Source: a virus
Taxonomy: Duplodnaviria > Caudoviricetes
IMG/VR virus record: IMGVR_UViG_3300020577_009322
Location: 32,001 to 96,000 of that record
Length of the DNA stretch: 64,000 nt
Strand: one strand, 5' to 3'
Below, piece after piece: positions 2,044 to 42,352 of this stretch. The notes under the pieces were generated by a model. That model saw nothing but the letters and a program-made list of their open reading frames with translations, was not told where the DNA came from and did not search any database. The translations under genes were made by a program, and so were the position numbers. Every line of letters begins with the position of its first letter. The first letter of the stretch is position 1.

Positions 2044-2131
2044 TTACGGGGATACGATTCGAACGTATGCATAGTCATAATGCTATGGCCGGTTTCTCTC
2101 ACCAGTGGGCCAACCACTACCCCACCCTGCC
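2044..2131 (-). tRNA. Aberrant class-II tRNA-like element (anticodon loop GAGAGAA, no U33, weak acceptor stem)
   Basis: T-arm ATACG-TTCGAAT-CGTAT, D-loop AGTGG, stem CTGGT/ACCGG, long variable hairpin CATAG/CTATG; acceptor GGCAGGG/CCCCGTA has 2 mismatches. Confidence 0.6.
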
Positions 2132-2142
2132 GTGTTTAAATT

Positions 2143-2171
2143 AAAAAAGCCCTCCCTTTTACAGGAGGGCT
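2143..2171 (-). terminator. Intrinsic terminator
   Basis: GCCCTCC/GGAGGGC hairpin followed by a U-run on the minus strand. Confidence 0.7.
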
Positions 2172-2191
2172 CTCTTGTGATTATTCTAATA

Positions 2192-3073
2192 CTAGTAATT
2201 ACTATTGACTGGTGTAACCACTTTTGTTGATAGAGAGGCTGTAATATCCTTATCTCTATCATATTCTTTAATAGGGGCTAATTCAAAGTAGGCATCAAAT
2301 CCAAAATCTTTATCATTAACTCCTGTTTCAAAACGATTCCAAGCCTTTTTAGCATATTCATTAGGGAATACTTTATCTCCCCTCTTTTCTAACCCTTCGA
2401 TATATTCCATAAAGGATTTTGGAAGAAAAGATTTACCATAAACTTGCTGATATTGCTTTTCACTATCATTCTCATCTGTTCTAACACCGGTTAGAATAAC
2501 AAATGGTGTGTCATATTCTCCATCGATTAAATTTTGCAATTCACTGTAATCTCCGGAGAATAATGCTTTAGTATCAATCAAAACTGAACAATTTAAGTTT
2601 GTCCAGACCATTCTACCTAACCAAGAACGTAGAAAAATAGCTAATTCCTCTTCTCCTAGTAATGCTTTTCTATATTGTTTATCACCTATACTATGACCAT
2701 CCTTTTGAAAGGAAGTAAACCAGGTGGGTAAATTACTCTCTTCATCTGTCCATGCTGTTGTACATGTACAATTTACATATTGAGATTTCAATCCATCTTT
2801 GCTTAATCTTTCTCTATTGGTCAAATTAAATGAGTGAACAAAATAGTTTTTTAGATTATCATCATACAACCAGAATGATAAACGAACTCTTTCATTACCA
2901 TTTTGATCCTCAGACAAATAGACAATCTCCTTATCTTCTGGACTGTCTTCTTTTCCTAGTAATTTGTTTAATTGTGAACGTGTTGGATTAACTGCAGCAA
3001 CCTGCACCTTTGTAAATCCAACATACTTTGTTGTTGCTTTACTGGACTGACCAGTTTGATTTCCTTTTACCAT
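2192..3073 (-). CDS. Conserved replication-module protein, possibly ssDNA-binding
   Basis: 293-aa ORF between AAA_24 and primase; function inferred from context only. Confidence 0.45.
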   Translation of the reverse strand: MVKGNQTGQSSKATTKYVGFTKVQVAAVNPTRSQLNKLLGKEDSPEDKEIVYLSEDQNGNERVRLSFWLYDDNLKNYFVHSFNLTNRERLSKDGLKSQYVNCTCTTAWTDEESNLPTWFTSFQKDGHSIGDKQYRKALLGEEELAIFLRSWLGRMVWTNLNCSVLIDTKALFSGDYSELQNLIDGEYDTPFVILTGVRTDENDSEKQYQQVYGKSFLPKSFMEYIEGLEKRGDKVFPNEYAKKAWNRFETGVNDKDFGFDAYFELAPIKEYDRDKDITASLSTKVVTPVNSNY

Positions 3074-3111
3074 ACTTTTCTTCTTTTACTCTTTTTCCTT
3101 TCTCTTGATTC

Positions 3112-3903
3112 TTAAATAAATATCTTATCCCATTCTAAGGGACCGTTGTAACCAGTTAAATGCTTTGCTCTAGTTCCTCCAATCTTCTCCTCAGTTCCAG
3201 TGAAATTTACCTTCAAAGTTCCTTTATCATTATAAACATAACCAATAGCATCTACTTTTCTTGGTAAACTTTCTCTTAATTTTCCAGTTAAAGCTAACTG
3301 TTTTGTAACAACTGTCTCTGTTCTGTCAGGTAAAGGTATGAATTTATCTTCAATATGACATACAAAAATCACACATTTTTTTGCAACTTTCATAAATAAA
3401 TTAAAGATAGTCATTACTTCCTCTCTAGACCACTTGTAACCATAACCATCAGGAAGTGTATGTACACTCTGATAATCATCATCTGCAGGATCGAGGAAGT
3501 CTCCTCCTTTAATAGGATTTCCCTTAGCATCTTTAACTCTATTAAAGGATTTTCCTTGTACACTATTCATATAACGATAAGTACCACTCCACTCTGCCCA
3601 TTCATTTACTTCTGTTAGAGTATCCAATGCTACGTAATCGTATCTTTTTCCTTCACTTATCAATTTTTCAGCCACTTTTTTTAACCAGTTTATCTTACCA
3701 ACTGGTCCTCTATCCTCGGGGACTATTATAGCTTTTGCCCGAGATTTTAGAGATCCTCTTTCTGTGTCCACAATTAGACAATTTTCCAATTCTGATAGTG
3801 CAGTAGTTTTTCCACACTTTTCCTTACCAAATAGAATACATGAGCTCATGTTAATTTCTGGCTCATGTGGCTTATTTGGAAAAATAATTTCTTCTTCTAT
3901 CAT
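3112..3903 (-). CDS. AAA_24/Sak4-like P-loop ATPase (putative recombination protein)
   Basis: GKEKCGKT Walker A, IVDTERGS, VALDTLT, IFVCHIE. Confidence 0.75.
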   Translation of the reverse strand: MIEEEIIFPNKPHEPEINMSSCILFGKEKCGKTTALSELENCLIVDTERGSLKSRAKAIIVPEDRGPVGKINWLKKVAEKLISEGKRYDYVALDTLTEVNEWAEWSGTYRYMNSVQGKSFNRVKDAKGNPIKGGDFLDPADDDYQSVHTLPDGYGYKWSREEVMTIFNLFMKVAKKCVIFVCHIEDKFIPLPDRTETVVTKQLALTGKLRESLPRKVDAIGYVYNDKGTLKVNFTGTEEKIGGTRAKHLTGYNGPLEWDKIFI

Positions 3904-3935
3904 TTCCTTTTGTTTTAGGAAACAAAGATAAGAAA

Positions 3936-4370: not shown

Positions 4371-4371
4371 T

Positions 4372-6532: not shown

Positions 6533-6549
6533 TTTTAGTTATTTTTTTG

Positions 6550-8260: not shown

Positions 8261-8328
8261 AGAATGAATATAAAAAATTTCTAGAAACTTTCCAAATCTA
8301 TTTACTGGGAGCTACCTTTATTAAACCA

Positions 8329-11783: not shown

Positions 11784-11786
11784 ATT

Positions 11787-16076: not shown

Positions 16077-16530
16077 TAAAGAATTGCTTGTTCTGTAGAT
16101 TTCTCTAAAGCAGCTTCTACATGAAGTTTAGTAAAAGTTATAAGTCCTTCAACTACAGAGCTTTGTGTTAGTGGTTCACCACTCAATTCCTCTTTAAAAA
16201 ATTCTTCTGCTGTGGGTATATTATTCATTAGTATTGAATTTGTTGTTTAACATTAAGAATAGAATTTCTATCAACAACATGTATCCATTCAGAAGAGTCA
16301 GGGTTTGAATATGTCCGTAATTCTACATTAGCTTCTTCAGCACATTTATCAATAACAACTTCTACTATTTCTTTAATAGCAGTTTGAAAATCAGAGTAGT
16401 TATTATAATCTTCCAATAATCCCTGTTTTGCAAAAAAACTCTTTAACATTTATATTTTTCATAGTTTATATTAATTTAAAAAAGGAGATAGGTTTCCCTA
16501 TCTCCTTCATCCGAGTATTTATTCTCTACT

Positions 16531-20202: not shown

Positions 20203-20295
20203 TTTTGATTTTTTAACATTATTAATGCTTTAGTCACTTTTCACTGATTAATAACAAAATAAACCTGTTATTTAGGTTATTTTACAATTTTGTTA

Positions 20296-21393: not shown

Positions 21394-21403
21394 AATTTTA
21401 ATT

Positions 21404-25208: not shown

Positions 25209-25562
25209 TCATTGTACCATTCGGGTATACCACCCGCTCTTCCTAAGAGTAAATACGTCTTTTATCATTTTTAAAGTTGTTTAGTTTGTAATCTTAATTT
25301 AGTTAAGTCTGATCTTTACTTTCTGTTTTGAAATTTCCAATTGGCTTTCATTGCAGCCAGTTTTATCTTTTCTTCTGGTGTCTTTTTGAAGACAGAGAAA
25401 TCAATGGAAAACTTCATTGAATTAATTTCTCTCTGAATGATACTCTTCTGAAGAGAGTATGCCTCACTTTCCATAATTTCTTTAAAGCTTGCTTCTTTTG
25501 CCATTTTTATTTGTTTTTAGAGTTAAAAAATGGTCACCTATAAGGATGGCCAAATCTGGTTG

Positions 25563-25995
25563 TGGAGGTGTTGGGTTACGAACCCAAGTCTTTCCCTGTT
25601 TCAATTTGTAAGTTACATGCATGTAGGTTTTTTATTGAGGTAACTACCCTCTATTCCTTGTGAAGGACAACTCTTTGTAATTTTTCAAGGTGATTTATGA
25701 AGAGATTACCAACTCTTCCTCATAACGGATTTCACATTCCTAGACAAGTGAATTGCTGTCTTATCCAATTTTGAAGTTACGCAGCTACTGCTACGTTAGC
25801 AAAAGCCATATTAATTAGCTTTGCACCCTCTGCTTGATGATCAACTGTGTTGTCATTTAATTGTTTGTATAAATTTGTTGGCTTTCCTTAACTTGTCCCG
25901 CTAGATGGGAGATCTCGGTACTTACTTTAGGCACTATATACTTTGAGCCTGCACGCCTACTCTTATTCACATTGAAATCAATTCAACTCACCCCC
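25563..25995 (-). ncRNA. ssrA: tmRNA
   Basis: Acceptor GGGGGTG/CACCTCC-A with G3:U70; T-arm TTGGG-TTCGTAA-CCCAA; tag ORF 25854-25777 DNTVDHQAEGAKLINMAFANVAVAA*. Confidence 0.92.
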
Positions 25996-26028
25996 ATATT
26001 ATTATGCAATATATATGAAACATTTTTA

Positions 26029-26412: not shown

Positions 26413-26491
26413 GTTACTACTTTTTGTAAAAATTTTGATTAAATCATTCTACTACAAAGATACTATAATTATTAATATTGAGCAAATTTCT

Positions 26492-28998: not shown

Positions 28999-29001
28999 TA
29001 G

Positions 29002-29739
29002 TTACTTTTTAAGTTTAGTTAATTTCTTGTAATTAGAGGGATCTTCAATGTCACCATTCATAAATTTGTTTATGGCATCTTTAGAATGTCTTCTTTTCTT
29101 ATATCTGAATTCATCTCTCCAGTACCTTTTACCACCAGCACTTCTCCAGTACTCTTCCAAGTTATCCTCAAGAAAAGCCTTCTCCTTGAGTAATTCATTA
29201 TCAATGTCCTGTACCATATTAAGTATTCTCTTCCTTACCCCTACACATATATAGTATTCCGGAATGTTCAATTCATATCTGGTATCTTTGTGTATTTGTC
29301 CACCCCACCTACTTACCCTTTCCACAACCCTTTTAGTAAAGAACTTCTTTACGTCCTCCTCTACTCTTTCATATTTCTTTTCAGTAAGAGAAGATACAGA
29401 AGGTCCACTGTAATAGGTTTTTCCATCTGTATGTGTGTGGGTAAATAATGGTCTTATCTTGGATAATAAGGTATCTTTTCTTATAGTAGATATTTTTGAG
29501 GAGCTTTCTTTACTTACTTTATATCCATTATCACAATATGAGAGTGCTCTGGCCATTCTCTCTCCATCATCTCTCCTCCTAGCTTCAGGAGTTAATTTAA
29601 GAAATAGATTCCAGCCATCTTGAATAGGTATATCTAACTTTCTCCAGGGACTATTTCTAATAATATCCCTTATCTCATTTAGTCTCTTTTCATTAGCTAG
29701 AAACTCTTTTTCTTTCTGTTCTATTGTATCTTCTTTCAT
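29002..29739 (-). CDS. Hypothetical protein
   Basis: 245-aa ORF. Confidence 0.65.
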   Translation of the reverse strand: MKEDTIEQKEKEFLANEKRLNEIRDIIRNSPWRKLDIPIQDGWNLFLKLTPEARRRDDGERMARALSYCDNGYKVSKESSSKISTIRKDTLLSKIRPLFTHTHTDGKTYYSGPSVSSLTEKKYERVEEDVKKFFTKRVVERVSRWGGQIHKDTRYELNIPEYYICVGVRKRILNMVQDIDNELLKEKAFLEDNLEEYWRSAGGKRYWRDEFRYKKRRHSKDAINKFMNGDIEDPSNYKKLTKLKK

Positions 29740-30011
29740 AGTGTTGATATTGGCGGGAATAGATATTCTTCCTGTTGTTGATTTTCTTCCTTATTTTCTT
29801 CACATAATTTTATACGATCAATTGACACCCCAAAGTATGTGTTTGATAGAGTAGAGATATAATTAGAAGGTACTATATGATCTCTATACCATCCTATAGT
29901 CTTCTCTAACTCTATAATTGCCATACTTCCTCGATCGATCAGGAGTACAATAATTGCTTTCTCTGGAATATCATTTTTATTTATAAATGTAACCCTATCA
30001 TACATTTTCAT
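29736..30011 (-). CDS. YLFPPI-tail paralog 4
   Basis: Ends EEYLFPPISTL. Confidence 0.75.
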   Translation of the reverse strand: MKMYDRVTFINKNDIPEKAIIVLLIDRGSMAIIELEKTIGWYRDHIVPSNYISTLSNTYFGVSIDRIKLCEENKEENQQQEEYLFPPISTL

Positions 30012-30286
30012 AATTGTGATATTGGTGGAAATAAATAGCTTTCTTTATTGTTGAATATATCTGTATCAGGAGCACTCTTTACTAATTCTAATCTTTCTAG
30101 AGGTATTGCATAGTATTTTCCTGATAGAGAGGGTATATAATCTTCTTCTATTCTGAGATGAGAATTATTTCCAGCTGACCATCCATAATCAGGATTCGAA
30201 GTTTCAATAATACAAATATTACCTCCAATATTCTTTACGAATATTCCCTCTCTATTATCACCTCTTACATAATCACCTTTTTTCAT
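30008..30286 (-). CDS. YLFPPI-tail paralog 3
   Basis: Ends ESYLFPPISQL. Confidence 0.75.
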   Translation of the reverse strand: MKKGDYVRGDNREGIFVKNIGGNICIIETSNPDYGWSAGNNSHLRIEEDYIPSLSGKYYAIPLERLELVKSAPDTDIFNNKESYLFPPISQL

Positions 30287-30555
30287 AATTCATTTATTGG
30301 TGGAAATAAATAATCATTATCATGTTCTGTAGTATCATTATTGGAAAGAAATGTGAGATCTTCTCTACTAACAAAGTAGTACAAGTTACATCCCTTACTA
30401 ATATATTCATCAGGTACATCCCTATCTCTAGGCCAACCACGTTTATTTGGTTCACTTAACTCCAGTAAAACATACTCATTATCGTCATCCCTTACAAAAA
30501 ATCCAATTACAGTCTCTCCATATAGATTAAATTTTACTATATCATACACATTCAT
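30283..30555 (-). CDS. YLFPPI-tail paralog 2
   Basis: Ends NDYLFPPINEL. Confidence 0.75.
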   Translation of the reverse strand: MNVYDIVKFNLYGETVIGFFVRDDDNEYVLLELSEPNKRGWPRDRDVPDEYISKGCNLYYFVSREDLTFLSNNDTTEHDNDYLFPPINEL

Positions 30556-30878
30556 AACTTAGATATTTCAGGAAATAAATATTCTTCTTCTTTATGAGGA
30601 TCCTTTAAAGGAATCCCTTTCTTAGATAGATGAGGAAAGGACATATAAGATAAGATAATATATGTATTAGTGGCTCTTGATTGGTACTCTCTGATAAGAG
30701 TTGAGCTGTCCCATCCTGATATATTTTCTCCATTTATTACCTCTAATATCATATTACGATAGCCGTCATAGTAGCGAGGTCCATACATTCTTACAAAATG
30801 AAAATCACCTTTACAGTTGCCCTCTCTGTAGAATAATATATCTCCAGGTGATAATTCCTCTATTTCTTTCTTATTCAT
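30552..30878 (-). CDS. YLFPPI-tail paralog 1
   Basis: Ends EEYLFPEISKL. Confidence 0.75.
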   Translation of the reverse strand: MNKKEIEELSPGDILFYREGNCKGDFHFVRMYGPRYYDGYRNMILEVINGENISGWDSSTLIREYQSRATNTYIILSYMSFPHLSKKGIPLKDPHKEEEYLFPEISKL

Positions 30879-30894
30879 TTTTAATTAATTTTTG

Positions 30895-30968
30895 TGATCC
30901 GGATTGGATTCGAACCAATGACCACCAGCTTAGAAGGCTGATGCTCTATCCAACTGAGCTACCGGACC
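30895..30968 (-). tRNA. tRNA-Arg(TCT)
   Basis: Canonical cloverleaf GGTCCGG/CCGGATC-A, loop CTTCTAA, GGTTCGAATCC; CCA not encoded. Confidence 0.93.
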
Positions 30969-30970
30969 AA

Positions 30971-31085
30971 TGTAGAAAGGGATGTCTTACTTAAACGACA
31001 GATGATATCCATTCCGTACTTATACATAGCAGGTTTGAGGGTCCGGATCATCTGAAAAGGATTCGAACCTTTTATATCCCTTACT
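30971..31085 (-). ncRNA. Circularly permuted tRNA-like RNA (3' half precedes 5' half)
   Basis: AGGGA-TAT-AAAAGG-TTCGAAT-CCTTTT-CAGATGA-TCC, ~39-nt spacer, TCATCTG-TC-GTTT-AAGTA-AGAC-A-TCCCT-TTCTA. Confidence 0.7.
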
Positions 31086-31092
31086 TTTTTAA

Positions 31093-31317
31093 TTACTTCT
31101 TCTTCTTTTCTTTCTTTCCTGCTCTTATCTTGTCCTGGTGAGCACGGATAGCCTTCATCTTTATTTTCCTTCTTTCTTTACGGAGAGCCCTGTATTCTTC
31201 GACAGTGGCAAGACCATTTTTTCTCATGTTTCTTAACATTGTTTTGGAATAGCCAAAATTTTTCTTAAATGTTTGGCCCTTTGTTGGCTTAGAAACTACT
31301 GTGTTTTCAGTACTCAT
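31093..31317 (-). CDS. Small highly basic protein
   Basis: K/R-rich 74 aa. Confidence 0.65.
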   Translation of the reverse strand: MSTENTVVSKPTKGQTFKKNFGYSKTMLRNMRKNGLATVEEYRALRKERRKIKMKAIRAHQDKIRAGKKEKKKK

Positions 31318-31928
31318 GATTGTGGTTTATGTGTGAAATTTTATTTTTTACTAATTTTACCTTCCTTAGTTAGCCTTCGTGTATGGTTGTTGATTTAATC
31401 GGAAAGTCCTCTCTTACAATATTGACTATATCATCTAAGTCAGATTCAGAAAAACCTATTTGGCAGGCCTGTACCTTAGCATATAGTCTTGTATATCTCT
31501 TATCCTTAAGGATAACATGTGTTGATTTCCCCTTTGATAATATTATCTTATCCTTCTTCTGTAGCTTTTGTTTTTCCATTTCTGATTTAATTGCTTGTTG
31601 TGTTTGCGTACTCATAATATGTGCTTGTTTAAATGATTTTAGTACTTTATTCAGAAGATAAGGAAAACTCTCTATTTAACTGATTCGATTAGTTCTCTTA
31701 ATTGTCGTACAGCATGATCGAAATCTTCTGTTTTTTCTATCTCCTGCTTCCCAGAAGTTTTTCCATTCTGAAATTCTACTGATCCTGACCATATCCCGCG
31801 TCCCCAATTACCCATAAAGAGGTTAATATGTGTCACACAGTCTTTTTTGAAGGGATCTTTTATAACAGAAGGTAGTTGAGATTTACCGTTACCTAATAGA
31901 TTATCAAACATATTTTATATTTTATTAG

Positions 31929-32342
31929 TTAGGATGTTTTACATGATAGTATCTTCAAATGTTGAGAAAATGCATATAATACGTTAAATATTGCTAATTT
32001 CTTTGTAGAAGCAACACATGAAGTACTATAGCCATTAGCAGTATTTTTGTAATCAAAATCATACACACTTACTTCACATCTATTTATATTTACATACCAT
32101 CCATTTTCTTCTATCCATTCGATTGCTTGGAGCTGCCAGTTGGCATCACTATGAAATTTGAGTAAACTATCACAATGATAGCGTTTACCATCAGGATATT
32201 TACCCCTTTCAGGAAAAGCCAAGTGGATACCAGTGGATCTAGTGTCCTTATTGGATGGATACCATTGTTCCTCTACAGAACCAATCATCTTTGCTATCTC
32301 CCTATTCATTTCTATTTCTTGAAGTGTTTCTTCATTTATCAT
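31929..32342 (-). CDS. Hypothetical protein, paralog of 32339..32740
   Basis: Shared N.EIAKM, L.FH.D.NWQ..AIE.IE, TKK.AIF..L..FSQHLK. Confidence 0.75.
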   Translation of the reverse strand: MINEETLQEIEMNREIAKMIGSVEEQWYPSNKDTRSTGIHLAFPERGKYPDGKRYHCDSLLKFHSDANWQLQAIEWIEENGWYVNINRCEVSVYDFDYKNTANGYSTSCVASTKKLAIFNVLYAFSQHLKILSCKTS

Positions 32343-32740
32343 GATAATGTTTTTAAGTGTTGAGAAAACTGAAAAAGAGCATCAAATATAGCCTCTTTTT
32401 TAGTAGGTTGGTAGGAGTGGCAGTTGCAGAAAAACTTCCAAACATCTGGAAAAATCGATCTGTTTTTATCTATGACATGCTCTTCACTGTGAATAGAACA
32501 ATGTTTTTTAGTTACCTGAACATAGTAAAATTTCTCTCCAAACTCCTGCAAATTCTCTATATATTCAATTGCCTCATGTTGCCAATTGCAATCATCATGA
32601 AAACGGAGTTCCCTAAAGGCAGCAATCCTGATTCCATCAGGTTTTTCCCATTCCCAATATAAGTTATTGACTAGGACTGATCTCCACTTAAGCATTTTAG
32701 CTATCTCCTCGTTCTTTCTCGATAATGTTAGTGATTTCAT
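32339..32740 (-). CDS. Hypothetical protein, paralog of 31929..32342
   Basis: Same shared motifs as 31929..32342. Confidence 0.75.
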   Translation of the reverse strand: MKSLTLSRKNEEIAKMLKWRSVLVNNLYWEWEKPDGIRIAAFRELRFHDDCNWQHEAIEYIENLQEFGEKFYYVQVTKKHCSIHSEEHVIDKNRSIFPDVWKFFCNCHSYQPTKKEAIFDALFQFSQHLKTLS

Positions 32741-32987
32741 TGATTTGTTCTTCAGAAGGTGGTAAAATAGTTGGGTTCTTTATTAATAAAGGTAATGCAC
32801 ATTGTAGACATATAGCTTCTACTTCAAGAGAAGGGTTTTTAACCATTTCTGCTGTAAATATAGCTTCTGAAGTATCACTTAGCCATACTTTTTCTCCACA
32901 CTTTTGACAATTCTTTTCTGTTCCCTTTGTTTGCGGATTTCTGTCCTCTATTCTTTGACAGATTATAGTAAATTTGTTGTCTTCCAT
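32697..32987 (-). CDS. Zn-finger protein
   Basis: CQKC...CLQC. Confidence 0.65.
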   Translation of the reverse strand: MEDNKFTIICQRIEDRNPQTKGTEKNCQKCGEKVWLSDTSEAIFTAEMVKNPSLEVEAICLQCALPLLIKNPTILPPSEEQINEITNIIEKERGDS

Positions 32988-32999
32988 AGATATTAATTT

Positions 33000-33033
33000 A
33001 AAAAGGAGTTCCTTTATAATTAAAGGAACTCCC
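33000..33033 (-). terminator. Intrinsic terminator
   Basis: GGAGTTCCTTTA/TAAAGGAACTCC hairpin plus U-run. Confidence 0.8.
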
Positions 33034-33158
33034 GAATCTATCTAACTTTATTTCTCTATTATATCGGTCATTTAACTGTGACCTTTAATCATTAAATTAT
33101 TAAATTATTATAATAGAGGAGTTGGTCCTCTGTTTCTTGTTAACATAGTGATCGATTT

Positions 33159-33617
33159 TTAAGCCATTACAGCTTCTGGTTTATTAACAGGTTGCAACAC
33201 CGTTTTTACTTTTCTTTCTCTGTAAGTCTTCCAGAAAAGAGTACGGATTAGTTTATTCTCCTTTCTTCTCTCATCATTATCAAATGAGGGAGGAAATAAG
33301 GAAAAGAGAACTTTGGTGAGAGAATAACAGCGTGCCTTTTCTACATCATGTTTTTCTCCCGGCACCAGGCGTACCATTTCTCTTGCAATTTCCTCATTCT
33401 GTTCGTTACTGATTACACAGATGGTGATATCTGGTGTAGGTAGGCACTTTGCCCTCACTAATCTCATAACTTTCCTCAACTCAAATGCTAGGTCAGGCTT
33501 TGTCATCTTCTTTACTGCACTCTCGTCAATTCCGGCTACGTCCAACCATTTCTCCAGGGTAGTATTTTTATACTGCCATCTGATTTTAAATTTTTGCTCG
33601 TTGTGAACTACTTGCAT
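33159..33617 (-). CDS. Hypothetical protein
   Basis: 152-aa ORF. Confidence 0.65.
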   Translation of the reverse strand: MQVVHNEQKFKIRWQYKNTTLEKWLDVAGIDESAVKKMTKPDLAFELRKVMRLVRAKCLPTPDITICVISNEQNEEIAREMVRLVPGEKHDVEKARCYSLTKVLFSLFPPSFDNDERRKENKLIRTLFWKTYRERKVKTVLQPVNKPEAVMA

Positions 33618-33657
33618 AAAACTTTATTTTATTTGTTAATAATTATTGCATTTCTTG

Positions 33658-33897
33658 TTATTCTATTACTATCTGATTTTCTTTAGTAAAATTAATGTTA
33701 GAAAATTTCTCATCAACACATCTCTCACATATGTGAGCTCCCCATCTCTCCATATCTTTATTAGAACCAAATCCCCACTTTGCTAACATTGTCATATATT
33801 CAAAACCATAATCAGTCTTACAAGATTTACCACAGCAATCACAGATAATATCTTCTACTATCTCCTGTTCTTTTACTTCTTTCTTTACTTTTCTCAT
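33658..33897 (-). CDS. Zn-ribbon protein
   Basis: CDCCGKSC...HICERC. Confidence 0.7.
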   Translation of the reverse strand: MRKVKKEVKEQEIVEDIICDCCGKSCKTDYGFEYMTMLAKWGFGSNKDMERWGAHICERCVDEKFSNINFTKENQIVIE

Positions 33898-34037
33898 TGT
33901 TATTATATTGGTTGTTCATTATGCCAGTCATTATCTGTAAAGAGATAATCAGGTGATTCATACTCTACTATATCTACTTCTTGAAAGAATAGAGATAAAA
34001 TAAGTTTTACTATCTTTTTCATGTTGATAAGTTTTAA

Positions 34038-34110
34038 GGGGTCTCATACAAGATTCGAACTTGTGATCTTCTCCATCAAGGAGATGAGTTCCCACTTCTC
34101 CAATGGACCC
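34038..34110 (-). tRNA. Aberrant tRNA-like element (5-nt anticodon loop TTGAT, bulged acceptor stem)
   Basis: GGGTCCAT/ATG(A)GACCC, D-arm GAG-AAGTGGGAA-CTC, TCTCC-TTGAT-GGAGA, ACAAG-TTCGAAT-CTTGT. Confidence 0.65.
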
Positions 34111-34638
34111 ATATTAAAAAGAGGGGACTATCCTACGATAATCCCCTTCTTGTGTGCTCTCTTTCTCCCTTAACGAGAAAAGTCATGGAGTACTTAGATC
34201 TAGAGATTTTTAATCATCTCAACCATCTTATTAAGAGACGGCCAGACGCAACTATATCTCACAGTTAATTGGTAAAAACCAATCATTTTTTATCATGCAG
34301 TAAGAAAAGACTGCAGCCTACTGCCAATATAACTAACCAAATACACCCTTGTGGATAATTATGATAATTTTTAGCTGTTAAGTAGCCCGACATGAATAAT
34401 AAGAAACATGAGAGGATAAAATTACCTAGTTTCATTCTTTTTTAGGTTCTAGAGTTTCAATAATGGTTACTTCTGCAGAAGTGTCTAGCGGTGATGGATG
34501 TAATATGATATCATTATCATCTACTCTCTCACCCCTCTCCTTTAGATACATAACGATAGCTTGCTTGATATCTTTGATATCGAGTAGCAATGTTCTTTTT
34601 CTTGTTTCTTTAATTTCCATAAATAACGTTTAAATTAG

Positions 34639-34797
34639 TGCGGGAGAAATGGATTCGAACCACTGACCTCCACCTTATCAGGGTGGTGCTCTATTATTCT
34701 CTTTACATTATAATCGTTCCAAGCTATCTATTGTACACTAGATAACGTACTTAGCTATAACATATTTAGATGAGAAATTCCACTGAGCTACTCCCGC
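34639..34797 (-). tRNA. tRNA-Ile(GAT) with an 86-nt insertion (34694-34779) in the D-loop
   Basis: GCGGGAGTAGCTCAGTGG-[86 nt]-TAGAGCACCACC-CTGATAA-GGTGGAGGTCAGTGGTTCGAATCCATTTCTCCCGCA. Confidence 0.85.
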
Positions 34798-34801
34798 TGT
34801 T

Positions 34802-35116
34802 TTAAAATCTGTATATCTCTAATGCTTCTTGTAAGCAAGGGACTAATTCCTTGATCTTTACTATATTATATAGCTTAAATCCACAGTTTACTACATCTGT
34901 ATCAGACAGACCATAATATATAGCCCAATCATGTATCTGGCCCCTTTTGGCTACCCACTTAATCGTATTCGGCAAGGAAGGCAATGAGAATGGTATTTTT
35001 ATTACATCATCTGTACCATTTTCTATATTACCTGTAGCAAAGATAGTCCCTGGCTTCATTTCCCTTAGATCATCAAGTGATAACTGTGGTGTTATTGGAG
35101 GAAATAAATATTCCAT
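34802..35116 (-). CDS. Hypothetical protein with N-terminal YLFPPI motif
   Basis: Starts MEYLFPPITPQL. Confidence 0.7.
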   Translation of the reverse strand: MEYLFPPITPQLSLDDLREMKPGTIFATGNIENGTDDVIKIPFSLPSLPNTIKWVAKRGQIHDWAIYYGLSDTDVVNCGFKLYNIVKIKELVPCLQEALEIYRF

Positions 35117-36690
35117 TATTTTTTCTTTAATATTTTACTTATTGAGACTATTAAATAGATACCTAAACTAACTCCTTGCTCAAAAAGCAGATACAATAGT
35201 AGGAATATAGGATTAAGGGTTATTGCCATTATTAGCGGTGCAACAATTAATAGTATCCAAACTATTATAAAGAGTAGTATATATCTCATGTTATTAGTTT
35301 TAATTAAAAAAGCAGGAACCACCTAAGTGATTCCCGCTAATTTTGTACAAGTAGCCTTATTATAAGCTTAAGACGACTTGCAGATTGCCTGCCAATTCCA
35401 GTGATCTCAGAGATGTAGTAACAATACATTCTTTCTTCATGCTGTGGCTAGTTTTAGGTTTTCCAGTTTTTTCTTATAATAAGAGAGATATTCTTCTGAA
35501 GAAATAATCATCTCTTTTACTATTAAAGATTGGTTAGGTATTGTTTTAAGATACTTAATATAATCTTCCTCCCTGTTTACAGTACTCTGTAAAGATAGGA
35601 TAAGCCTGTTTTCTTGCATACAGCTATTTGATTAATGGATAATTATAGTTACTTTAGTCAACTTATATTCCTTCAATTGTTTTAATACAATTGGATGAGA
35701 TTTTGTACATTTTATTAAGAGCTCTTTTGGTTGTTTTATTTCCAAAGAGATGAGGTGAGGAACATTCTGCTATTTCCAGAAGATTGTTTACCTGTATTAT
35801 GTGACCAAATATACCCGGAAGTTTCTTGTGTTGCAATGTTTTAAATATCATGATTCGTTGATTTGCTGTTCAATGATACGAGATAATAGATGCTGAAATT
35901 TTGTCATAGTAATAAATTTAAGAAGTTAGGAAAATATAGAAATATTCTCCGCTCTAATCCATAAAAGTTGTGATACATTACAGTTTCATAATAACCTCCT
36001 GTTTTAAAGATTTCTAAAAAATACTCAAATAAAAAAAGCAGTGACCATAGCCACTGCCTTTAACCTAAAACTTGCCTACAACGAACCAAAAGTTATGAAG
36101 CTAACTTATACTCTCTTACTGTGAAGAAGTCCAGATTTGGATATCTGGCAAATAACTTATTACGTAGTTCCCTTCTGTTTTTTTCGTAATTACAAGATGT
36201 AATAAAGCCAATCCGATATGAGGATCCATTTTTACCCCAACACCGGGCAATTAGGTGAGTTACCATTCTTTACCAATTTTAGAGTTGATTGATATAAATT
36301 TGTAGAAGTAGCCCAATTGACATCTAGAGGATATCCTCCCCATATCATAGAGCATATTACTTCATAAAGTTCTTTTTCTCTCTTCTTCCATTGATAGGGT
36401 AATGTCTTTCCATTTACCTCTTCATAGAAGTAGGTTATCTTCTTAGACATATATTATCTTGGTATTTTGATTATCATATTGCAGGGTGTCCAGGTTTGAG
36501 AAGGTTAAAAGAACAAAACAGGATAATCTGGACAAAAACATGGACAAAGCCAGCATGATGCTCTGGGCACCCTGTGAAATAGCCAAGATAACTGTCTTTT
36601 TCTGCATTCAGTTAAGCCCCATTTCAAAAGACGATTGCTACCTGGCGATCTCGATCTTTACTTTTTTATTCTTGATCTTCTCTTTTTTGA

Positions 36691-36975
36691 TCAGTTCCAG
36701 CCAATTAATACTGTTACTTTATCATTACCTCTTAATTGCACCTTTCCGTCTTGAACTGTTACGCCTGGCAAATTTTGCATTGTTTGTAAAACCGAACCTC
36801 CACTTTGACTGATGTTATCTTCAACTTTAAAAGTCTTTTTATCCATTTCGGTAGTAGCAAGAGTAATTATTGTTCCCTTCTCTGTCTTTGTTCCCAATTT
36901 TAGTTGACTTTTAAGGCGCTCCAATGCGTCTTTTCTACGAATGTTTACCTGTCCACTACTTTGTGATAGCTTCAT
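36691..36975 (-). other. Chimeric ORF: phage N-terminus fused to a TonB-dependent receptor plug fragment
   Basis: MDKKTFKVEDNISQSGGSVLQTMQNLPGVTVQDGKVQLRGNDKVTVLI matches Bacteroidota TBDR plug-domain sequence. Confidence 0.7.
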
Positions 36976-36991
36976 ACAAGAATTTTAATTA

Positions 36992-37201
36992 TTAATTAAT
37001 TGTTACATCACTTTCTGTCAGAAGAGATAATAATGCTCCTACAATATCCTTTACTGTAGCAACATCTCCGTTCTCTGATCCGGGAAATATTTCCTTAACG
37101 GAAGTATCTTCCCTCTTTCCATTAAGATCTTCACGTACCTGGTTCAGCCAATTCTTGTATTCTTCTTTTCTCTTCTTTAGATCTTCAAATCTGTATACCA
37201 T
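36992..37201 (-). CDS. Hypothetical protein (probable start MVYRF at 37201)
   Basis: The upstream part of the track ORF overlaps the lipoprotein in another frame. Confidence 0.55.
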   Translation of the reverse strand: MVYRFEDLKKRKEEYKNWLNQVREDLNGKREDTSVKEIFPGSENGDVATVKDIVGALLSLLTESDVTIN

Positions 37202-37208
37202 AAAAATA

Positions 37209-37697
37209 TTAATGTCTGCCTGGGCTTGAGTAGCTACGGCTGGGTGAGGAATAACTTCTTGAAGGAGAAGAGTAACTTCTGCTTGGTGAAGAATACGATC
37301 GGGGAACAGTATAATCTCTGCTAGGTGGAATATACGTACCATTCGATTTTGAGGAATAGTTATTTCTGCTTGGCGAGGAGTAGTAACTACTGGTCTTAGG
37401 AGTATACTTCTGACTATAGTTACTATACTTAGCTGGTGTATAGTTAGTAAACTCCACAGGATGGCCCTGATAATAGCGATACACATTACTATAACCACCA
37501 TTGTTGAACAATGTATGAAACAGCATATAGTTCATAAAGAAACTACTCTGATCCCCATTGTCATTAACATAAGTTACATTAACCACGCTGTCCTTGCCAT
37601 CAGGTGACCACTCTGCTGTATGACTGGATTGAACACCTGTATTACAGGAAGATAATAGCATTATACCAATTGATAAAGCTATAAAAAACTTCTTCAT
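37209..37697 (-). CDS. Lipoprotein with C-terminal (YSSPSRS)n heptads
   Basis: MKKFFIALSIGIMLLSS-C lipobox; 21-nt repeats. Confidence 0.8.
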   Translation of the reverse strand: MKKFFIALSIGIMLLSSCNTGVQSSHTAEWSPDGKDSVVNVTYVNDNGDQSSFFMNYMLFHTLFNNGGYSNVYRYYQGHPVEFTNYTPAKYSNYSQKYTPKTSSYYSSPSRNNYSSKSNGTYIPPSRDYTVPRSYSSPSRSYSSPSRSYSSPSRSYSSPGRH

Positions 37698-37724
37698 TTT
37701 TATTTCTTTTTAGTTGTTAATAAT

Positions 37725-38205
37725 TAGCACCCTCTTGTCTTACTTACACAAGCCTTTCAACCTTGATTAAGTATTAATGACCAGTAAGAGTAGGGTCACA
37801 TAGTTGATTGATTGATCTCCTTACAGTACTCTTCAGATGCATCATGTATTACTACATTACTTAGTCTTGCACTGAGATATGGACCATCTTCCTACAAGGA
37901 TCGGCTCTTATCAAGCCTTGCATTACTACATCAACTACTGCTGAGAACTCATTCGTATTATGGTACCATAGTTTAGACAAGTGTACTTATTACCTTTTAA
38001 TCTATGCTTTCTTTCTCAAGGAAATAATACGTCTACCATTACTGATAGAATTTGTTATGTAGGGAACAGTGCGACACCTTTCGGTGGCTTCCTTCATACG
38101 TCATTACACGTTCTACAAAGTAGGACTTTGATAACCTCGTTGATTATAAGAACAGTGCCCAGTCTATCAACTACATACAGTTTATGTATTATCCTGCATG
38201 GGTAA
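37725..38205 (-). ncRNA. Candidate large structured ncRNA (~480 nt)
   Basis: No sense-strand ORF in the track; several GNRA-capped hairpins and long-range complementarities. Confidence 0.65.
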
Positions 38206-39043
38206 AAGATTTATGATAAAGCAATAATTGCTGTAATAGGGGAACCTATCAATGCACAAGCAGCTGCTGCTGTAAATCCATATACGGCCCCAACAATTGC
38301 TACTATAATAATAAATAGTATAAGTACGAATAAAGTTATTTTATCTTGTTTTGTCATTTTTCAAATTTTTATATACTAAATAAGTTATTTATCTACCGGA
38401 ACACACATCATATCCTCAACTTGTTCCGCAATATCTTCAGGAGGTAAAATTTCTCTTATGTGAGATAGTGGAAAACCAAGTTCATAATTATGAATATTAT
38501 ACCCAATTATACCTTCCTCAAAGAAAACAACTACTTCTTTTGTTCCTTCACACATACATTCATCCCTAATCATGTATGGTGTTTTTTCATCCATTTGAGG
38601 AAGCCATTTTACATAAGGTTCGTTTATATCACCAACAGCGATTTTTCTACAGACTACGATAGATCCTGGTTTCATATGTAATTGTTTTAAAGATTAGTCA
38701 CTTGTATCAACAGAGCAGAATACTTTCTTAACATGATAAACGTACATGGTATCATACCCATCTCTATTCCATTTGATAGATTCCTCCTTTCCATTATCAG
38801 CTGTTTCTTCTCGATATTTTTGGATATCGACAGCACTCCATGAGTTCATCCATCCAAGATTTTTATATCCCAACTTCTCCAGATGATTACGATAATCCTT
38901 ACTACTATTAAACTCACCCAATTCTGTTTTCATATATAACTATTGATTAATAATACCTTACTGTAGGAGTAGTATATTGAACGTTAATAAATAACAATTT
39001 CTCAACAACAGAAATGTATAAACCTTAAAGATTATTTATACAA

Positions 39044-39625
39044 TTATGGTATATATAGAATTGTTGGATTGTTTTTATGAATATCAATATTCGGATAAAC
39101 CGATTTAAATGCTTGAACATCAAATGGTCTTGTAATTAAATGAACTCCATTTTTTGTGTTAAGAATACTTATAAGTTTCGTTCCTTCTGGTCTCAGTGTT
39201 TCAATTAATTTAAGTACGTCATTCACTACCCTACCCTTTTCATCAATATCTACAATCCATTTTTTAGTTCCATTCTCATTGCTAAATGAGCCGCAACATG
39301 AATTATAAGATTTTCTTACACTAGTAAAATCCTTATTCATTATATGGTCAGTAATGCTTTTTAAATTGTGGTAACATATTCTTTCAAAACTTCTTTTGTT
39401 AAGATTGATACATACCCTTGCATTATGGAAATCTGCCAAACACTTCATTTCACCCCAATCCAATTCCAATTCCTCAATAGATTTAATGTAATAGGTTTTT
39501 ATAACATGACTATTACTACCAAGTTCCGCATTGTCTTTTTTGCGCTTTAATATTTGACAGAAGTAAAAATCATCCTTACTATCAAATAAAAGTAGTTTTT
39601 TTATATCGTCAAAATTATCTATCAT
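39044..39625 (-). CDS. Conserved phage protein with AEP/PrimPol-like motifs
   Basis: WIVDIDE and TKNGVHLI. Confidence 0.55.
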   Translation of the reverse strand: MIDNFDDIKKLLLFDSKDDFYFCQILKRKKDNAELGSNSHVIKTYYIKSIEELELDWGEMKCLADFHNARVCINLNKRSFERICYHNLKSITDHIMNKDFTSVRKSYNSCCGSFSNENGTKKWIVDIDEKGRVVNDVLKLIETLRPEGTKLISILNTKNGVHLITRPFDVQAFKSVYPNIDIHKNNPTILYIP

Positions 39626-39928
39626 TTTATTGTTAATTTAAGAATGACATAATAAAGCCCCCTCCTATTTGCCAGATAGAAGGGAGCAATGAGCTTAGAG
39701 CATCGTGGAGAAGAATTCCATAAAGGTAATTCCCTTGGTTATCCAATAATATAACATTTACACAAGGCATAATGTTATTCCTCCAGATTTCGTCTAGTTT
39801 TTTAATATAAATAATACATCTCTATTATAGACCTTATATAGTCTATAGTCTAACCCATGAGGAACCTAAATTCCTCATGACGCTCTTGGGCTTAATAGCT
39901 TTGGAGAAACTCCCTGGCCCAGACCAGA

Positions 39929-40267
39929 TTAAAGGAAGCTGTAGTACATGTTTGGTGCAGCAGCTTTTACAGCCTTTTTGAAAGCATCATAATCTCCATC
40001 TGCATGGAACTGTTGCCTTGCTGTTTCCAGTGCCACTACCAGATCTTTGGCTTCTTTTTCTTGTTGCCTGATACGGCGTAATGAAGCAACAGAGGCTGAT
40101 ACTACAGTCTGAGCAAGAGAAAGTTGCTCAATGAGCTTCTCCTGCTGTTCTTTGTTCTGTTGTTCTTTCAAACTTTCCAGCGCTTTTTTCACTGAATCAC
40201 TGGTTGGTTTACCTGACATTGAGGCCAATAATTTTTCGGCATCAACTTTTGTTGTAGGTTTTGACAT
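39929..40267 (-). CDS. Coiled-coil hypothetical protein
   Basis: 112-aa helical ORF. Confidence 0.65.
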   Translation of the reverse strand: MSKPTTKVDAEKLLASMSGKPTSDSVKKALESLKEQQNKEQQEKLIEQLSLAQTVVSASVASLRRIRQQEKEAKDLVVALETARQQFHADGDYDAFKKAVKAAAPNMYYSFL

Positions 40268-41184
40268 GTTTTTAGTTTTTAAAATGAGGAATTTTGATAA
40301 TTTCTATATTAATATTCGTAGAAACTCCCTTCCCATGCGAATTGTTTCTTTTGTTTTACATGCACGAATACTAAATGAAGCCCCCGTTCGTTTATTAGTT
40401 AGTAATCTCAACACAATGTACTTGAGAGATAATCAGATGCAGGATATCCTTCTCTGTACATATCATATACAGATTGTCTGTCCTAATACTTTCTCACTTT
40501 TGATAGGTCCATCATAACCTACTAAGCATACCATGAATGTTTTCATTTTGTTCGTTTATAGGTTAACAGCTATATCTTGCTCCAAGTCCATTTTGTCAGT
40601 TGCCTGTCATAATGTCTGGTTTTCGTTTGTTTTTTAGTCTAATACCTCCTTCAATCCCTCCTTATCCACAACAATAACTGGCTGATACTCAACGGGAAAC
40701 TGGTTACACCGCTCATCAAAGTTCCAATCGAGGAACCGTAATACCTGCCATAACACAAACCATATTACAGGGAAGTATACCCATCTCTGCAGAGTAGTGT
40801 GAGGTTCTAAACCAAGTAATCCGGTTAATAAAGCTAATAGTATTACGATCAAACCATAAGTAACCCAATAAGTAAATCTCATATTCTTCTTTTTTTATTT
40901 AGCTGATGAAAAATAAGGGAGTATATAGAAATACACTCCCATTAAAACCCTCAATTTATGAACAAATACCGTGAGAGGTTATGGATTCGAACCAATCTAG
41001 TCCCTATAACTCCTCTCATAAAATAGTAATAATCAGAGTAAAAATGAATAAAAACTCTGCTCTTTTGTCATGACACAATGTCAGATAGAGATATTACCTA
41101 AAGCCATTTTAACATTCTTCACATCAGTAAAGGAAGCTGCCATTACGGCAGCCTCCCTAACTTATCATTAATCAAACAGCGATC

Positions 41185-41652
41185 TTAGTCCTGTACAGCC
41201 GGTTTCAGTGTGCGTTTGGTAGAACCCACTGACTGACCGTTCTTAGCGTAGATGCTGTAACGCTCTTTTTGAGCATTCTGCCTGAACTCGTTTGCAGAGG
41301 CACTGAAAGGCTTGGTTGTCAACCATACGCTCCTGTCACGTTTTGCAACGTCCAGAACCAGGTCTTCACCTTCATAGTGACCCATTTGGGTCTCATCATC
41401 CCAGGTAAAATTCTCGTTGTCTTCAAAGGCATCCTGATGCACTTTGATTTCCACCACGTTCTCTGCAGTAACCGGATACACTTCACCATCCAATTCTACC
41501 GTCTGTGAACCCCTCACTTTATCCATTGGTTCCGCCAGCTCCAGGATAGCCACTTTTGTACCATCACTTGTGGTTTGTGGTGTGATCATAGTGAAATCGA
41601 AAGATACCAGAGATAGGTCTTTGATTTTCTTAAACAATGCTACTTTTGCCAT
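41185..41652 (-). CDS. Early protein, paralog of 41781..42263 (probable start MAKVALF)
   Basis: Shared SDG.KV, LAEP.DKV, ENVVE.KV, DL.LD, VWLT..FS. Confidence 0.75.
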   Translation of the reverse strand: MAKVALFKKIKDLSLVSFDFTMITPQTTSDGTKVAILELAEPMDKVRGSQTVELDGEVYPVTAENVVEIKVHQDAFEDNENFTWDDETQMGHYEGEDLVLDVAKRDRSVWLTTKPFSASANEFRQNAQKERYSIYAKNGQSVGSTKRTLKPAVQD

Positions 41653-41780
41653 CTTCTTAAATTTTAGATGATTTGAATAATATATTATCCATCCTCCCAA
41701 CAGTTGGTTTGTGTAAGGGGCAGAAATAAAAAAGAAAGCACACCTTATTAGATGTGCCTTCTTATTAAAGCTATCAGTGA

Positions 41781-42263
41781 TCAATTCTTAGCATACCTTG
41801 ACCATCTTGCCTTGTTCTTCTCGTTCCTCATGTTCTGGCCAAACTTACTGAATTTTACATCAGTCAGCCAAACCTCATCATTACCTGATAAATCCAAGAT
41901 TAAATCACCGCTGTAACTACCAGTCTTGGTCAATTCACTGGTTGGATCATTAGGATCAACCAAGTCAAAGACCCATTTGTTGTCTGGCTCATCTTTCTCT
42001 AAGGCTTTCTCGATCAATTCAACCTTTACCTTCACCTCAACCACGTTCTCCTTGTATGGATGAACACGTTGACTGGCATCATCTGGATTGGCAATGAATG
42101 TTGATGATACAACCTTGTCAATTGGCTCAGCGAGAGTGAAGATTAAGAAATCAACCTTGTTTCCATCAGAATCTGCTGAAGATACCTCTCTTCTGAAGTC
42201 AACAAAAGAGAATTTGCTCATCGGCATTTCAGCCAGTTTGGCACGTAATGAGAACTTTTCCAT
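41781..42263 (-). CDS. Early protein, paralog of 41185..41652
   Basis: Same shared motifs as 41185..41652. Confidence 0.75.
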   Translation of the reverse strand: MEKFSLRAKLAEMPMSKFSFVDFRREVSSADSDGNKVDFLIFTLAEPIDKVVSSTFIANPDDASQRVHPYKENVVEVKVKVELIEKALEKDEPDNKWVFDLVDPNDPTSELTKTGSYSGDLILDLSGNDEVWLTDVKFSKFGQNMRNEKNKARWSRYAKN

Positions 42264-42310
42264 AAATAGACAGATTTACAATTAGCTCTGTTAGGCGTTT
42301 TGATTAATGA

Positions 42311-42352
42311 GAACCAGCCAGGGAATCGAACCCTGGTTGTTCCAAACTGGTT
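42311..42352 (-). ncRNA. Mini tRNA-like element (acceptor stem plus T-arm only)
   Basis: AACCAGT-TTGGAACAAC-CAGGG-TTCGATT-CCCTG-GCTGGTT-C. Confidence 0.6.

Follow-up and report, generated by a model that had tools for sequence, protein, structure and literature searches.

The main current reading of phage tRNA genes is that they counter immune systems which cleave tRNA; Cas12a3 is a tail-cleaving nuclease (PMC12851939). Transfer-messenger RNAs (tmRNAs) are already known from phages, and mycobacteriophage DS6A carries a tmRNA remnant that consists of the tRNA-like domain only (TLD only); such molecules inhibit tmRNA, perhaps by titration of SmpB (PMC4131195). In Mycobacterium smegmatis, RNase P cleaves the YrlA RNA, whose acceptor stem has 7 bp, and CCA is added to it (PMC4201824). 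The stretch analysed here (the window, 64,000 nucleotides) comprises bases 32001-96000 of the complete 155,463-bp virus record IMGVR_UViG_3300020577_009322, which has direct terminal repeats. A first-pass annotation of the window had proposed that seven elements with a tRNA-type T-loop, lying beside one normal tRNA-Arg, form a system of tRNA mimics that act either as decoys or as cleavage signals. An organised decoy set would be important if true.

All seven T-loop elements and the tRNA-Arg were found at, or 1-3 nt from, the positions first given for them, and all are on the minus strand (Table 1). Minus-strand genes fill positions 1-43,400 (the early arm), and the later genes are on the plus strand; the early-arm elements are all co-oriented with transcription and lie in intergenic gaps. 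In the best-supported assignment, the eight elements comprise two working genes, one conserved permuted mimic, and five young lineage-specific derivatives. With moderate confidence, we regard them as heterogeneous products of tRNA and tmRNA gene gain, rearrangement, and erosion in an accessory early region, and not as one mimic system. The seven elements fall apart as a single system by their origins, since one derives from the 3' end of a tmRNA, one carries an Arg-type T-arm, and three are full tRNA genes with insertions or deletions (indels).

Table 1. Positions of the tRNA- and tmRNA-related elements and an adjoining open reading frame (ORF) in the window, and of permuted modules in related phages (GA, gathering threshold; MFE, minimum free energy).
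Feature	Position	Strand	Helices	Basis
Class II Leu(GAG)-like aberrant tRNA	2043..2131	-	perfect T-arm ATACG/CGTAT	ARAGORN
tmRNA	25560..25995	-		Rfam RF00023, 37.4 bits (GA 47), E 2e-11, whole model aligned
tRNA-Arg(UCU), canonical	30894..30968	-		Rfam 70.9 bits, ARAGORN
Circularly permuted tRNA-like module	30971..31085	-		MFE fold, helix table
74-aa highly basic ORF (ORF74), directly upstream of the permuted module	31093..31317	-		tblastn, alignment
Ser(UGA)-like aberrant tRNA	34038..34110	-		Rfam tRNA 38 bits (GA 29), ARAGORN
tRNA-Ile(GAU), D-loop-interrupted	34639..34797	-		Rfam partial match 28.5 bits, model positions 7-64
Weak minihelix	40971..41018	-	7-bp helix TGAGAGG/CCTCTCA around T-arm	T stem 3/5 pairs
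Minihelix	42311..42353	-	AACCAG/CTGGTT, 10-nt linker TTTGGAACAA, T-arm CCAGGG-TTCGATT-CCCTGG	fold z = -2.45
Permuted module	L015:16176-16285		T GTGGG/CCCAC, acceptor CCCCCGA/TCGGGGG, D GTTC/GAAC	YrlA 36.9 bits
Permuted module	L017:3488-3630		T GCGGG/CCTGT, acceptor CGGGATA/TCTCTCG, D GCTC/GAGC	YrlA 26.9 bits
Permuted module	G001:4377-4255		T ACGGG/CCCGT, acceptor ACACATC/GGTGTGT, D GCTC/GAGC	YrlA 33.2 bits
Permuted module	G001:171215-171134		T AGCGG/CCGCT, acceptor TCTCCCC/GGGGAGA, D GCTC/GAGC	

The bare heptamer TTCGAWT was not enriched in the window (19 occurrences versus 14.7 ± 3.9 expected), and the bare-motif count was replaced by a test for stem-closed T-arms, with 300 dinucleotide shuffles as the null. 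TTCGAWT or TTCGTAA loops closed by a full 5-bp stem occurred 8 times in the window compared with 0.17 times expected (at most 2 in any of the 300 shuffles), and seven of the eight were on the minus strand between positions 2052 and 42335. The eighth, at 52841-52825 inside a late gene, has an A/T-rich stem with G:U pairs and looks like a chance match. Elsewhere in the genome, stem-closed T-arms were confined to the canonical tRNA array. The T-arm excess is therefore real, and T-arms of the GGTTCGAATCC or the GGTTCGATTCC type are present in six of the elements. ARAGORN at default stringency called 3 genes in the window and 0 in the shuffles. At relaxed stringency it called 28 and 27, respectively, and this absence of an excess indicates that there is no hidden crowd of further relics. 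The first acceptor-enclosure descriptor and a loose descriptor of the permuted module were dropped because they were too permissive, and the MFE z-scores of the elements (-1.1 to -2.5) were uninformative. The earlier suggestion that the T-arm had been spared repeatedly agrees with the stem-closed excess and fails for the minihelix 40971-41018, in which two substitutions break stem pairs. The apparent sparing is attributable to a search seeded with T-loops, to the fact that no other 17 nt of a tRNA or tmRNA are as easily recognised as the T-arm, and to the youth of the relics, which are GC-rich and have intact stems. The first-pass annotation had itself cautioned that its T-loop-seeded scan biases the pattern, and the seeding is indeed one source of it.

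The tRNA-Arg(UCU) and the tmRNA are probably ordinary working genes. The former was the sole element to pass the test for a canonical tRNA (RF00005), namely a score at or above the GA, a 7-bp acceptor stem, and a 7-nt anticodon loop; the Leu-like, Ser-like, and Ile elements failed it in score, acceptor, or loop geometry. The tmRNA was not called by ARAGORN, and its RF00023 score is below the GA. It has the acceptor GGGGGTG/CACCTCC with G3:U70, the T-arm TTGGG-TTCGTAA-CCCAA with all five pairs formed, and an in-frame tag that ends in ...VDHQAEGAKLINMAFANVAVAA and is followed by a stop codon. When the tag DHQAEGAKLINMAFANVAVAA was compared with the tag DHQAEGAKLINMCFADVAVAA of the related locus L017, both of which run to a stop codon, the 22 codons differed by six synonymous and two non-synonymous changes. 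The predominance of synonymous differences indicates selection on a translated tag. The tmRNA gene is located downstream of the same AAA ATPase gene in this phage and in L017, and the tmRNAs of the relatives scored 70.7 bits (L017:12477-12871) and 99.2 bits (G001, a distant 176-kb relative). Judged from these sequence features the tmRNA looks functional, and its tag would presumably be translated with the aid of host SmpB. The tag (25835-25770, minus strand) is 21-25 codons long, approximately twice the usual bacterial length. In addition, this phage and L017 hardly differ in the 25 nt upstream of its DHQ... codons, so translation may in truth resume at a codon further upstream.

The permuted module ends 8 nt upstream of tRNA-Arg. 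Its MFE fold is a four-way junction that consists of a closing stem (AAGGGA/TCCCTT), a T-arm (AAAGG-TTCGAAT-CCTTT), an acceptor helix (CAGATGA/TCATCTG) paired at 7 of 7 positions and closed by a 42-nt loop, and, after the dinucleotide TC, a D-like hairpin (GTTT-AAGTA-AGAC). The region 31085-30971 thereby presents the element order of YrlA (RF02553): V, T-arm, closed acceptor stem-loop, D-arm, and closing helix. Given the T-arm, the joint chance of the complete 7-bp helix, the D hairpin, and the 6-bp closing stem was approximately 0.0015 by our own pairing-probability arithmetic. No Rfam YrlA match was obtained for this region at E<=10, even in a 191-nt search. Its 5' flank (...AAAAAAGTAAGGGAT) contains no GNCGAA Ro60-binding motif, the closing helix is just 6-9 bp long, and the D-loop lacks GG. 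No rsr/TROVE gene (PF05731) was found in the phage genome, G001, G002, or G003, and the TROVE control search matched Bacteroides thetaiotaomicron, so that Bacteroidota can encode Ro60. A gene of the DUF7873 family (PF25283) adjoins the permuted module in L015 only, and searches of the phage genome and G001 found none.

The relatives were located by way of the neighbouring AAA ATPase and small basic ORF. The layout recurs among them, giving five modules in four phages in which the sequences differ and the T, acceptor, and D helices are intact; the YrlA scores of the relatives (26.9-36.9 bits) are all below the GA of 69. The module of this phage is syntenic with that of L017, both following a homologous basic ORF of 74-82 aa, and the homologues of ORF74 in L017, L027, and L015 are followed by a permuted module, tRNA genes, or a tRNA-like gene. 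Four of the five modules are situated directly upstream of a tRNA, tRNA-like, or tmRNA gene, that is, of an RNase P substrate. In G001 (loci L026 and L018) the distances are approximately 28 nt to the tmRNA and approximately 24 nt to a canonical tRNA, and the L015 module lies approximately 55 nt upstream of an odd tRNA-like gene. This position points to a role in tRNA or tmRNA maturation or in an interaction with host factors. A strict permuted descriptor gave 7 matches compared with 1.9 expected over all sequence examined. Its matches in L010 and L016 were rejected as AT-rich chance matches, and the two sub-threshold YrlA matches in G003 and in the phage's own tRNA array as tandem-tRNA artefacts, of which the original YrlA paper warns (PMC4201824). 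Owing to the variable loops, MAFFT gave no usable alignment of the modules. Of the tRNA mimics proposed by the first-pass annotation, two are genuine, namely the tmRNA and the permuted module, whose layout recurs in related phages. The permuted module would be a functional tRNA mimic handled by host tRNA enzymes, and its 7-bp acceptor helix makes an RNase P cut inside the closing loop plausible by analogy with M. smegmatis YrlA.

Several further features of the permuted modules were recorded. The two loci in G001 span 171215-171105 and 4377-4186, and at the module beside the canonical tRNA the upstream flank CACGC can pair with the tRNA 5' strand GCGTG. The 42-nt loop of the module in the window holds CCGGACC (31046-31040, minus strand), the exact complement of the 5' acceptor strand GGTCCGG of tRNA-Arg (30968-30962); the tRNA's own 3' strand, CCGGATC, gives a G:U pair. 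The CCGGACC sequence could be the trace of a tandem tRNA-Arg duplication, or an alternative pairing that competes with tRNA folding. In L015, the segment 15295-16423 comprises the DUF7873 gene, the permuted module, a GC-rich hairpin, and a second odd tRNA-like element (16347-16423). Members of the K/R-rich small protein family are encoded at L017:3230-3478, L015:8244-8474, and L027:3001-3147, and also in L028 and L030; the family could be an RNA-binding partner. An interpretation of the permuted element as a two-piece amber-suppressor tRNA (CUA) was rejected, since its "anticodon stem" runs on as a helix, translation under code 11 leaves the late genes intact, and neither an RNA ligase nor RtcB was found.

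Three of the five derivatives are full-length tRNAs with aberrant geometry. In the Leu-like element the D, anticodon, long variable, and T arms are intact, and the acceptor is flawed: ARAGORN pairs it with two mismatches in seven, and it can also be drawn as 6 bp with a 2-nt bulge. A replaces U at position 33, and no Rfam tRNA match was obtained at E<=10. The Ser-like element has normal D and T arms, one base bulged in the acceptor stem, and no long variable arm. Its anticodon stem can be drawn with 5 bp and a 5-nt loop or with 4 bp and a 7-nt loop, the loop being two bases short in the Rfam alignment. In the tRNA-Ile, an 86-nt AT-rich hairpin is inserted after G18G19 (34694-34779; 26.7% GC compared with 53-67% in the exons), and such a structured D-loop insertion is not typical of tRNA lesions. 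When the insert was removed in silico, a 74-nt tRNA-Ile(gat) was obtained, with one extra T at the junction of T stem and acceptor. The insert is single-copy, matched no Rfam ribozyme or intron family, and has no group I core. No comparable interrupted tRNA-Ile was found in IMG/VR by a gapped-pattern search, and the anticodon/T-arm pattern of the tRNA-Ile had no exact match in 185,579 species genomes. The earlier statement that anticodon arms are missing, opened, or non-canonical does not hold for the tRNA-Ile, whose anticodon arm is canonical (CCACC-CTGATAA-GGTGG) and whose lesion is the D-loop insert.

The other two derivatives are minihelices. The weak minihelix 41018-40971 is identical to the T-arm of tRNA-Arg over 15 of 15 nt, after which two changes break two stem pairs. 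The minihelix 42353-42311, whose start lies at the stop codon of ORF 42351-42596, consists of a 6-bp outer helix and a 6-bp T-arm. It is homologous to the 3' ends of the relatives' tmRNAs (GTTTGGAC plus T-arm): it matches that of L017 (AGTTTGG..ACCAGGGTTCGATTCCCTG..GCT) with 29/29 identities and two indels, and that of G001 at 22 of 24 positions. These matches indicate that it is a derivative of a tmRNA tRNA-like domain. It did not align with the phage's own tmRNA, and it has neither G3:U70 nor a GGGG acceptor. Once a T-arm is present, the probability that a 6-bp helix encloses it within 25 nt is approximately 0.13 by our own arithmetic, and the minihelix layout was not above chance in the sequence examined (13 versus 7.9 expected). 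Positions 39952-51652 were recovered with 100% identity in an independent SRA assembly, which excludes assembly error as the source of the two minihelices. The genes between them, including ORF 41185-41784, are ORFans without a homologue in 5.8 billion proteins.

The comparison with relatives showed a pattern of turnover. Four non-canonical tRNA-derived elements (the Leu-like, Ser-like, and Ile elements and the Arg-type minihelix) have no orthologue in the relatives examined, and this, together with the ORFan genes, also speaks against one system. The first-pass annotation had named intact tRNAs at these loci in relatives, with substitutions spread evenly across the arms, as evidence that would tell against it. 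Intact tRNA genes were present in the equivalent region of L027 (Glu, Thr, Phe, and Arg) and of G001 (Arg, Leu, Met, and Leu), so the objection holds in part; G001 shares only 4 early proteins with this phage and is too distant for synteny. Interspersed with the intact tRNAs of that region, the relatives have aberrant tRNAs too, which differ from those of this phage, and continuing gene turnover would be expected to give this picture: the anticodon loop of L027:4622-4695 is 6 nt long, and in L009:7031-7100, an Arg(CCT)-like gene, an insert of 6-8 nt separates the T stem from the acceptor strand. In a further element, L015:9138-9229, which scored 50.9 bits with Rfam and was missed by ARAGORN, the acceptor, D, and T arms are normal and an 8-bp hairpin takes the place of the anticodon loop (ACCCC-GT-GCAGC...GCTGC-CT-GGGGT; fold z = -5.0). 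The canonical tRNA array of this phage lies outside the window (genome 99,976-104,647) and has 24 genes that cover all 20 amino acids. It includes Ile(GAT), Arg(TCT), Leu(TAG), and Leu(TAA), so the early-arm Ile, Leu, and Arg copies are redundant; no tRNA-Ser(UGA) was found in it. Between tRNA-Leu(TAA) and tRNA-Ser(GCT) the array also contains a perfect T-arm, GAGAG-TTCGATT-CTCTC (genome 104445-104461, plus strand), that is part of no called tRNA.

The mechanism we propose is that tRNA and tmRNA genes are rapidly gained, rearranged, and eroded in the genome of a tRNA-rich crAss-like phage. The five derivatives would be young pseudogenes or fragments unable to decode, and their residual activity, if any, would be that of incidental RNase P and RNase Z substrates. 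Several observations weigh against this proposal. The stems of the three full-length aberrant tRNAs are essentially free of substitutions, all lesions being indels, and the nucleotides of tertiary interactions are kept (G18G19, T54-A58, and the Levitt pair); both features are also expected under selection for an L-shaped, non-decoding RNA. The minihelix 42353-42311 forms a perfect 6+6 bp coaxial stack. Five non-functional relics are many for a lytic phage genome under deletion pressure. Similar oddities in every relative examined could reflect clade-wide use of tRNA-like RNAs rather than decay. Finally, no relatives at 80-95% identity were found, the only other copies being 100% identical.

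A rather unlikely alternative, though the most probable of the rivals, is that the non-decoding elements are kept, in the manner of plant mitochondrial t-elements, as RNase P and RNase Z signals that set the 5' and 3' ends of mRNAs or stabilise early transcripts. Their orientation with transcription and intergenic location fit this alternative, as do the retention of the acceptor helix and T-arm, which are the parts read by RNase P and RNase Z, and the start of 42353-42311 exactly at an ORF stop codon. Precedents exist in the plant mitochondrial t-elements, which came from a screen with the same motif, GGTTCRANYCC, and have mapped RNase P/Z ends with C or CA addition (PMC1920247), and in the processing of M. 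smegmatis YrlA (PMC4201824). On the other hand, intrinsic-terminator-like hairpins are enriched at 25000-43600 (19 versus 7.4 ± 2.6 expected), the strongest of them nearly all on the minus strand. Because of this abundance, the accessory early region appears to be divided into many short transcription units. This weakens the earlier idea that cleavage signals punctuate long early transcripts, since the early arm is not one long transcript that would need punctuation. Individual elements also lie close to terminators: the Ser-like element begins approximately 12 nt after the terminator 34147-34122, a hairpin followed by a T6 run is found directly upstream of the Leu-like element (approximately 2172-2140), and the terminator 40940-40917 is approximately 30 nt downstream of the minihelix 41018-40971. 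Moreover, the acceptor bulges and mismatches should weaken recognition by RNase P and RNase Z, the minihelix layout is no commoner than chance, and none of these elements is conserved in relatives.

It is unlikely, too, that the crAss-like clade deliberately maintains a toolkit of non-decoding tRNA and tmRNA mimics, made up of a TLD-only minihelix, tRNAs whose anticodon loops or D-loops are altered, and permuted modules that closely precede tRNA and tmRNA genes. Such RNAs would engage host RNase P and RNase Z, the CCA enzyme, SmpB, Ro60, or acceptor-end nucleases without a phage protein partner, and their purpose would be to control the maturation of the adjoining tRNA or tmRNA or to blunt tRNA-directed immunity.

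The use of the elements as decoys that titrate host proteins acting on tRNA or tmRNA, and so protect phage translation, is less probable still. Candidate targets would be nucleases or toxins that act at the acceptor end or the elbow, SmpB for the TLD-like minihelix, and Ro60/Rsr for the permuted module. The anticodon loop is what anticodon nucleases read (for context, PMC10264068). Since the anticodon stem-loop is missing, shortened, or opened in most of the elements, decoys against these nucleases, which the first-pass annotation had suggested, are unlikely. Decoys for readers of the acceptor and T-elbow, such as SmpB, Ro60, or tail-cleaving nucleases of which Cas12a3 is an example, are possible. 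In favour of titration, there is good documentation both of defences that target tRNA and of the tRNA-based answers of phages (PMC10264068, PMC11464382, PMC12851939), the DS6A remnant provides a precedent for a tmRNA inhibitor (PMC4131195), 42353-42311 is homologous to a tmRNA 3' end, the permuted module has the topology of YrlA, and Bacteroidota can encode Ro60. Against it, a TLD-type inhibitor would also block the phage's own full tmRNA, the minihelix lacks G3:U70, the permuted module has neither a recognisable Ro60-binding motif nor a score with the YrlA model, and no partner gene was found in cis.

Least probable is that the three full-length aberrant elements are working tRNAs of unusual structure, with the Ile insert spliced by an unknown route and the Ser-like RNA supplying the UCN decoding absent from the array: the lack of tRNA-Ser(UGA) in the array, the excellent tRNA given by the Ile exons, and the intact stems and tertiary-interaction nucleotides would fit, but an anticodon cannot be displayed normally by a loop of 5 nt, bacterial seryl-tRNA synthetase requires a long variable arm that is missing from the Ser-like RNA, the Ile insert has neither a group I core nor an Rfam ribozyme match, no RNA ligase or RtcB was found in the phage, and bacteria are not known to have a bulge-helix-bulge splicing endonuclease.

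The genomic setting is as follows. The portal protein (53460-56246) is 21-27% identical to the portals of crAss-like, Cellulophaga, and Leptolyngbya phages, and this low identity indicates a divergent crAss-like phage. A megablast search against GenBank phages gave no match, and the second genome copies were 100% identical, so no microdiversity was present. The early arm encodes replication proteins, DNA ligase, an AAA ATPase, a MoxR/vWA pair, and GIY-YIG endonucleases, and the late genes are intact under code 11. SmpB (PF01668), RtcB, an Rnl-type RNA ligase, and a CCA-adding enzyme were not found in the phage genome. Two group I introns on the minus strand (18471-18690 and 19704-19978; 64.1 and 88.9 bits) interrupt the MoxR/vWA pair, and GIY-YIG/NUMOD1 endonuclease ORFs lie near these introns of the MoxR-type AAA ATPase gene region. 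A match to the Pistol self-cleaving ribozyme below threshold (39849-39928, minus strand; 29.8 bits versus a GA of 34.5, E 0.17, full model length) is intergenic and adjoins a strong terminator (39687-39657).

For the most part, what looks like a repertoire is better explained as debris of gene turnover beside two ordinary genes, which calls for caution in surveys seeded with a motif. Permuted mimics of the YrlA type recur in the crAss-like clade, characteristically just upstream of tRNA or tmRNA genes, without Ro60 or DUF7873 in this phage and G001. The tmRNA-derived minihelix and the interrupted tRNA-Ile are unusual single cases that could show the recycling of tRNA-like domains.

The elements were compared with the known systems they most resemble. 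Like the tmRNAs of Bxz1-group mycobacteriophages and Bacillus phage G (PMC4131195), the tmRNA of this phage has an alanine-identity acceptor, a T-arm, and a tag ending in AA, and is encoded by a phage without smpB. It differs from them in its longer tag, its divergent T-loop TTCGTAA, its Rfam score below the GA, and a host clade of the crAss-like/Bacteroidota type. The minihelix 42353-42311 shares with the DS6A TLD-only remnant (Hudson et al. 2014, PMC4131195) homology to a tmRNA 3' end and the absence of the mRNA and pseudoknot part, and both are barely more than an acceptor helix, a short linker, and a T-arm. In contrast to that remnant, it has no G3:U70/GGGG acceptor, is only 43 nt long, and shares its genome with a complete tmRNA.

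The permuted module has the order of V, T-arm, loop-closed acceptor, D-arm, and closing stem in common with the YrlA Y RNAs (RF02553; Chen et al. 2014, PMC4201824), and its 7-bp acceptor helix in common with that of M. smegmatis. Whereas YrlA genes lie beside rsr, the modules described here lie directly upstream of tRNA or tmRNA genes; the copy in the window gives no YrlA match and lacks the D-loop GG and the GNCGAA strand, and a TROVE/Rsr gene is absent from both this phage and G001. The plant mitochondrial t-elements (Forner et al. 2007, PMC1920247) are likewise non-canonical, intergenic, and co-transcribed, with a conserved GGTTCRANYCC T-arm and an acceptor helix. Their RNase P/Z ends and CCA-type additions have been mapped, and the elements of this phage stand in a terminator-rich context; the t-elements would be the closest proven precedent for any residual processing by RNase P and RNase Z. 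As to the tRNA pseudogenes of tRNA-rich phages, the stems of the elements described here are almost free of substitutions and the 86-nt D-loop insert is an atypical lesion, but both groups are lineage-specific, redundant with intact isoacceptors, and marked by indels that break the tRNA geometry.

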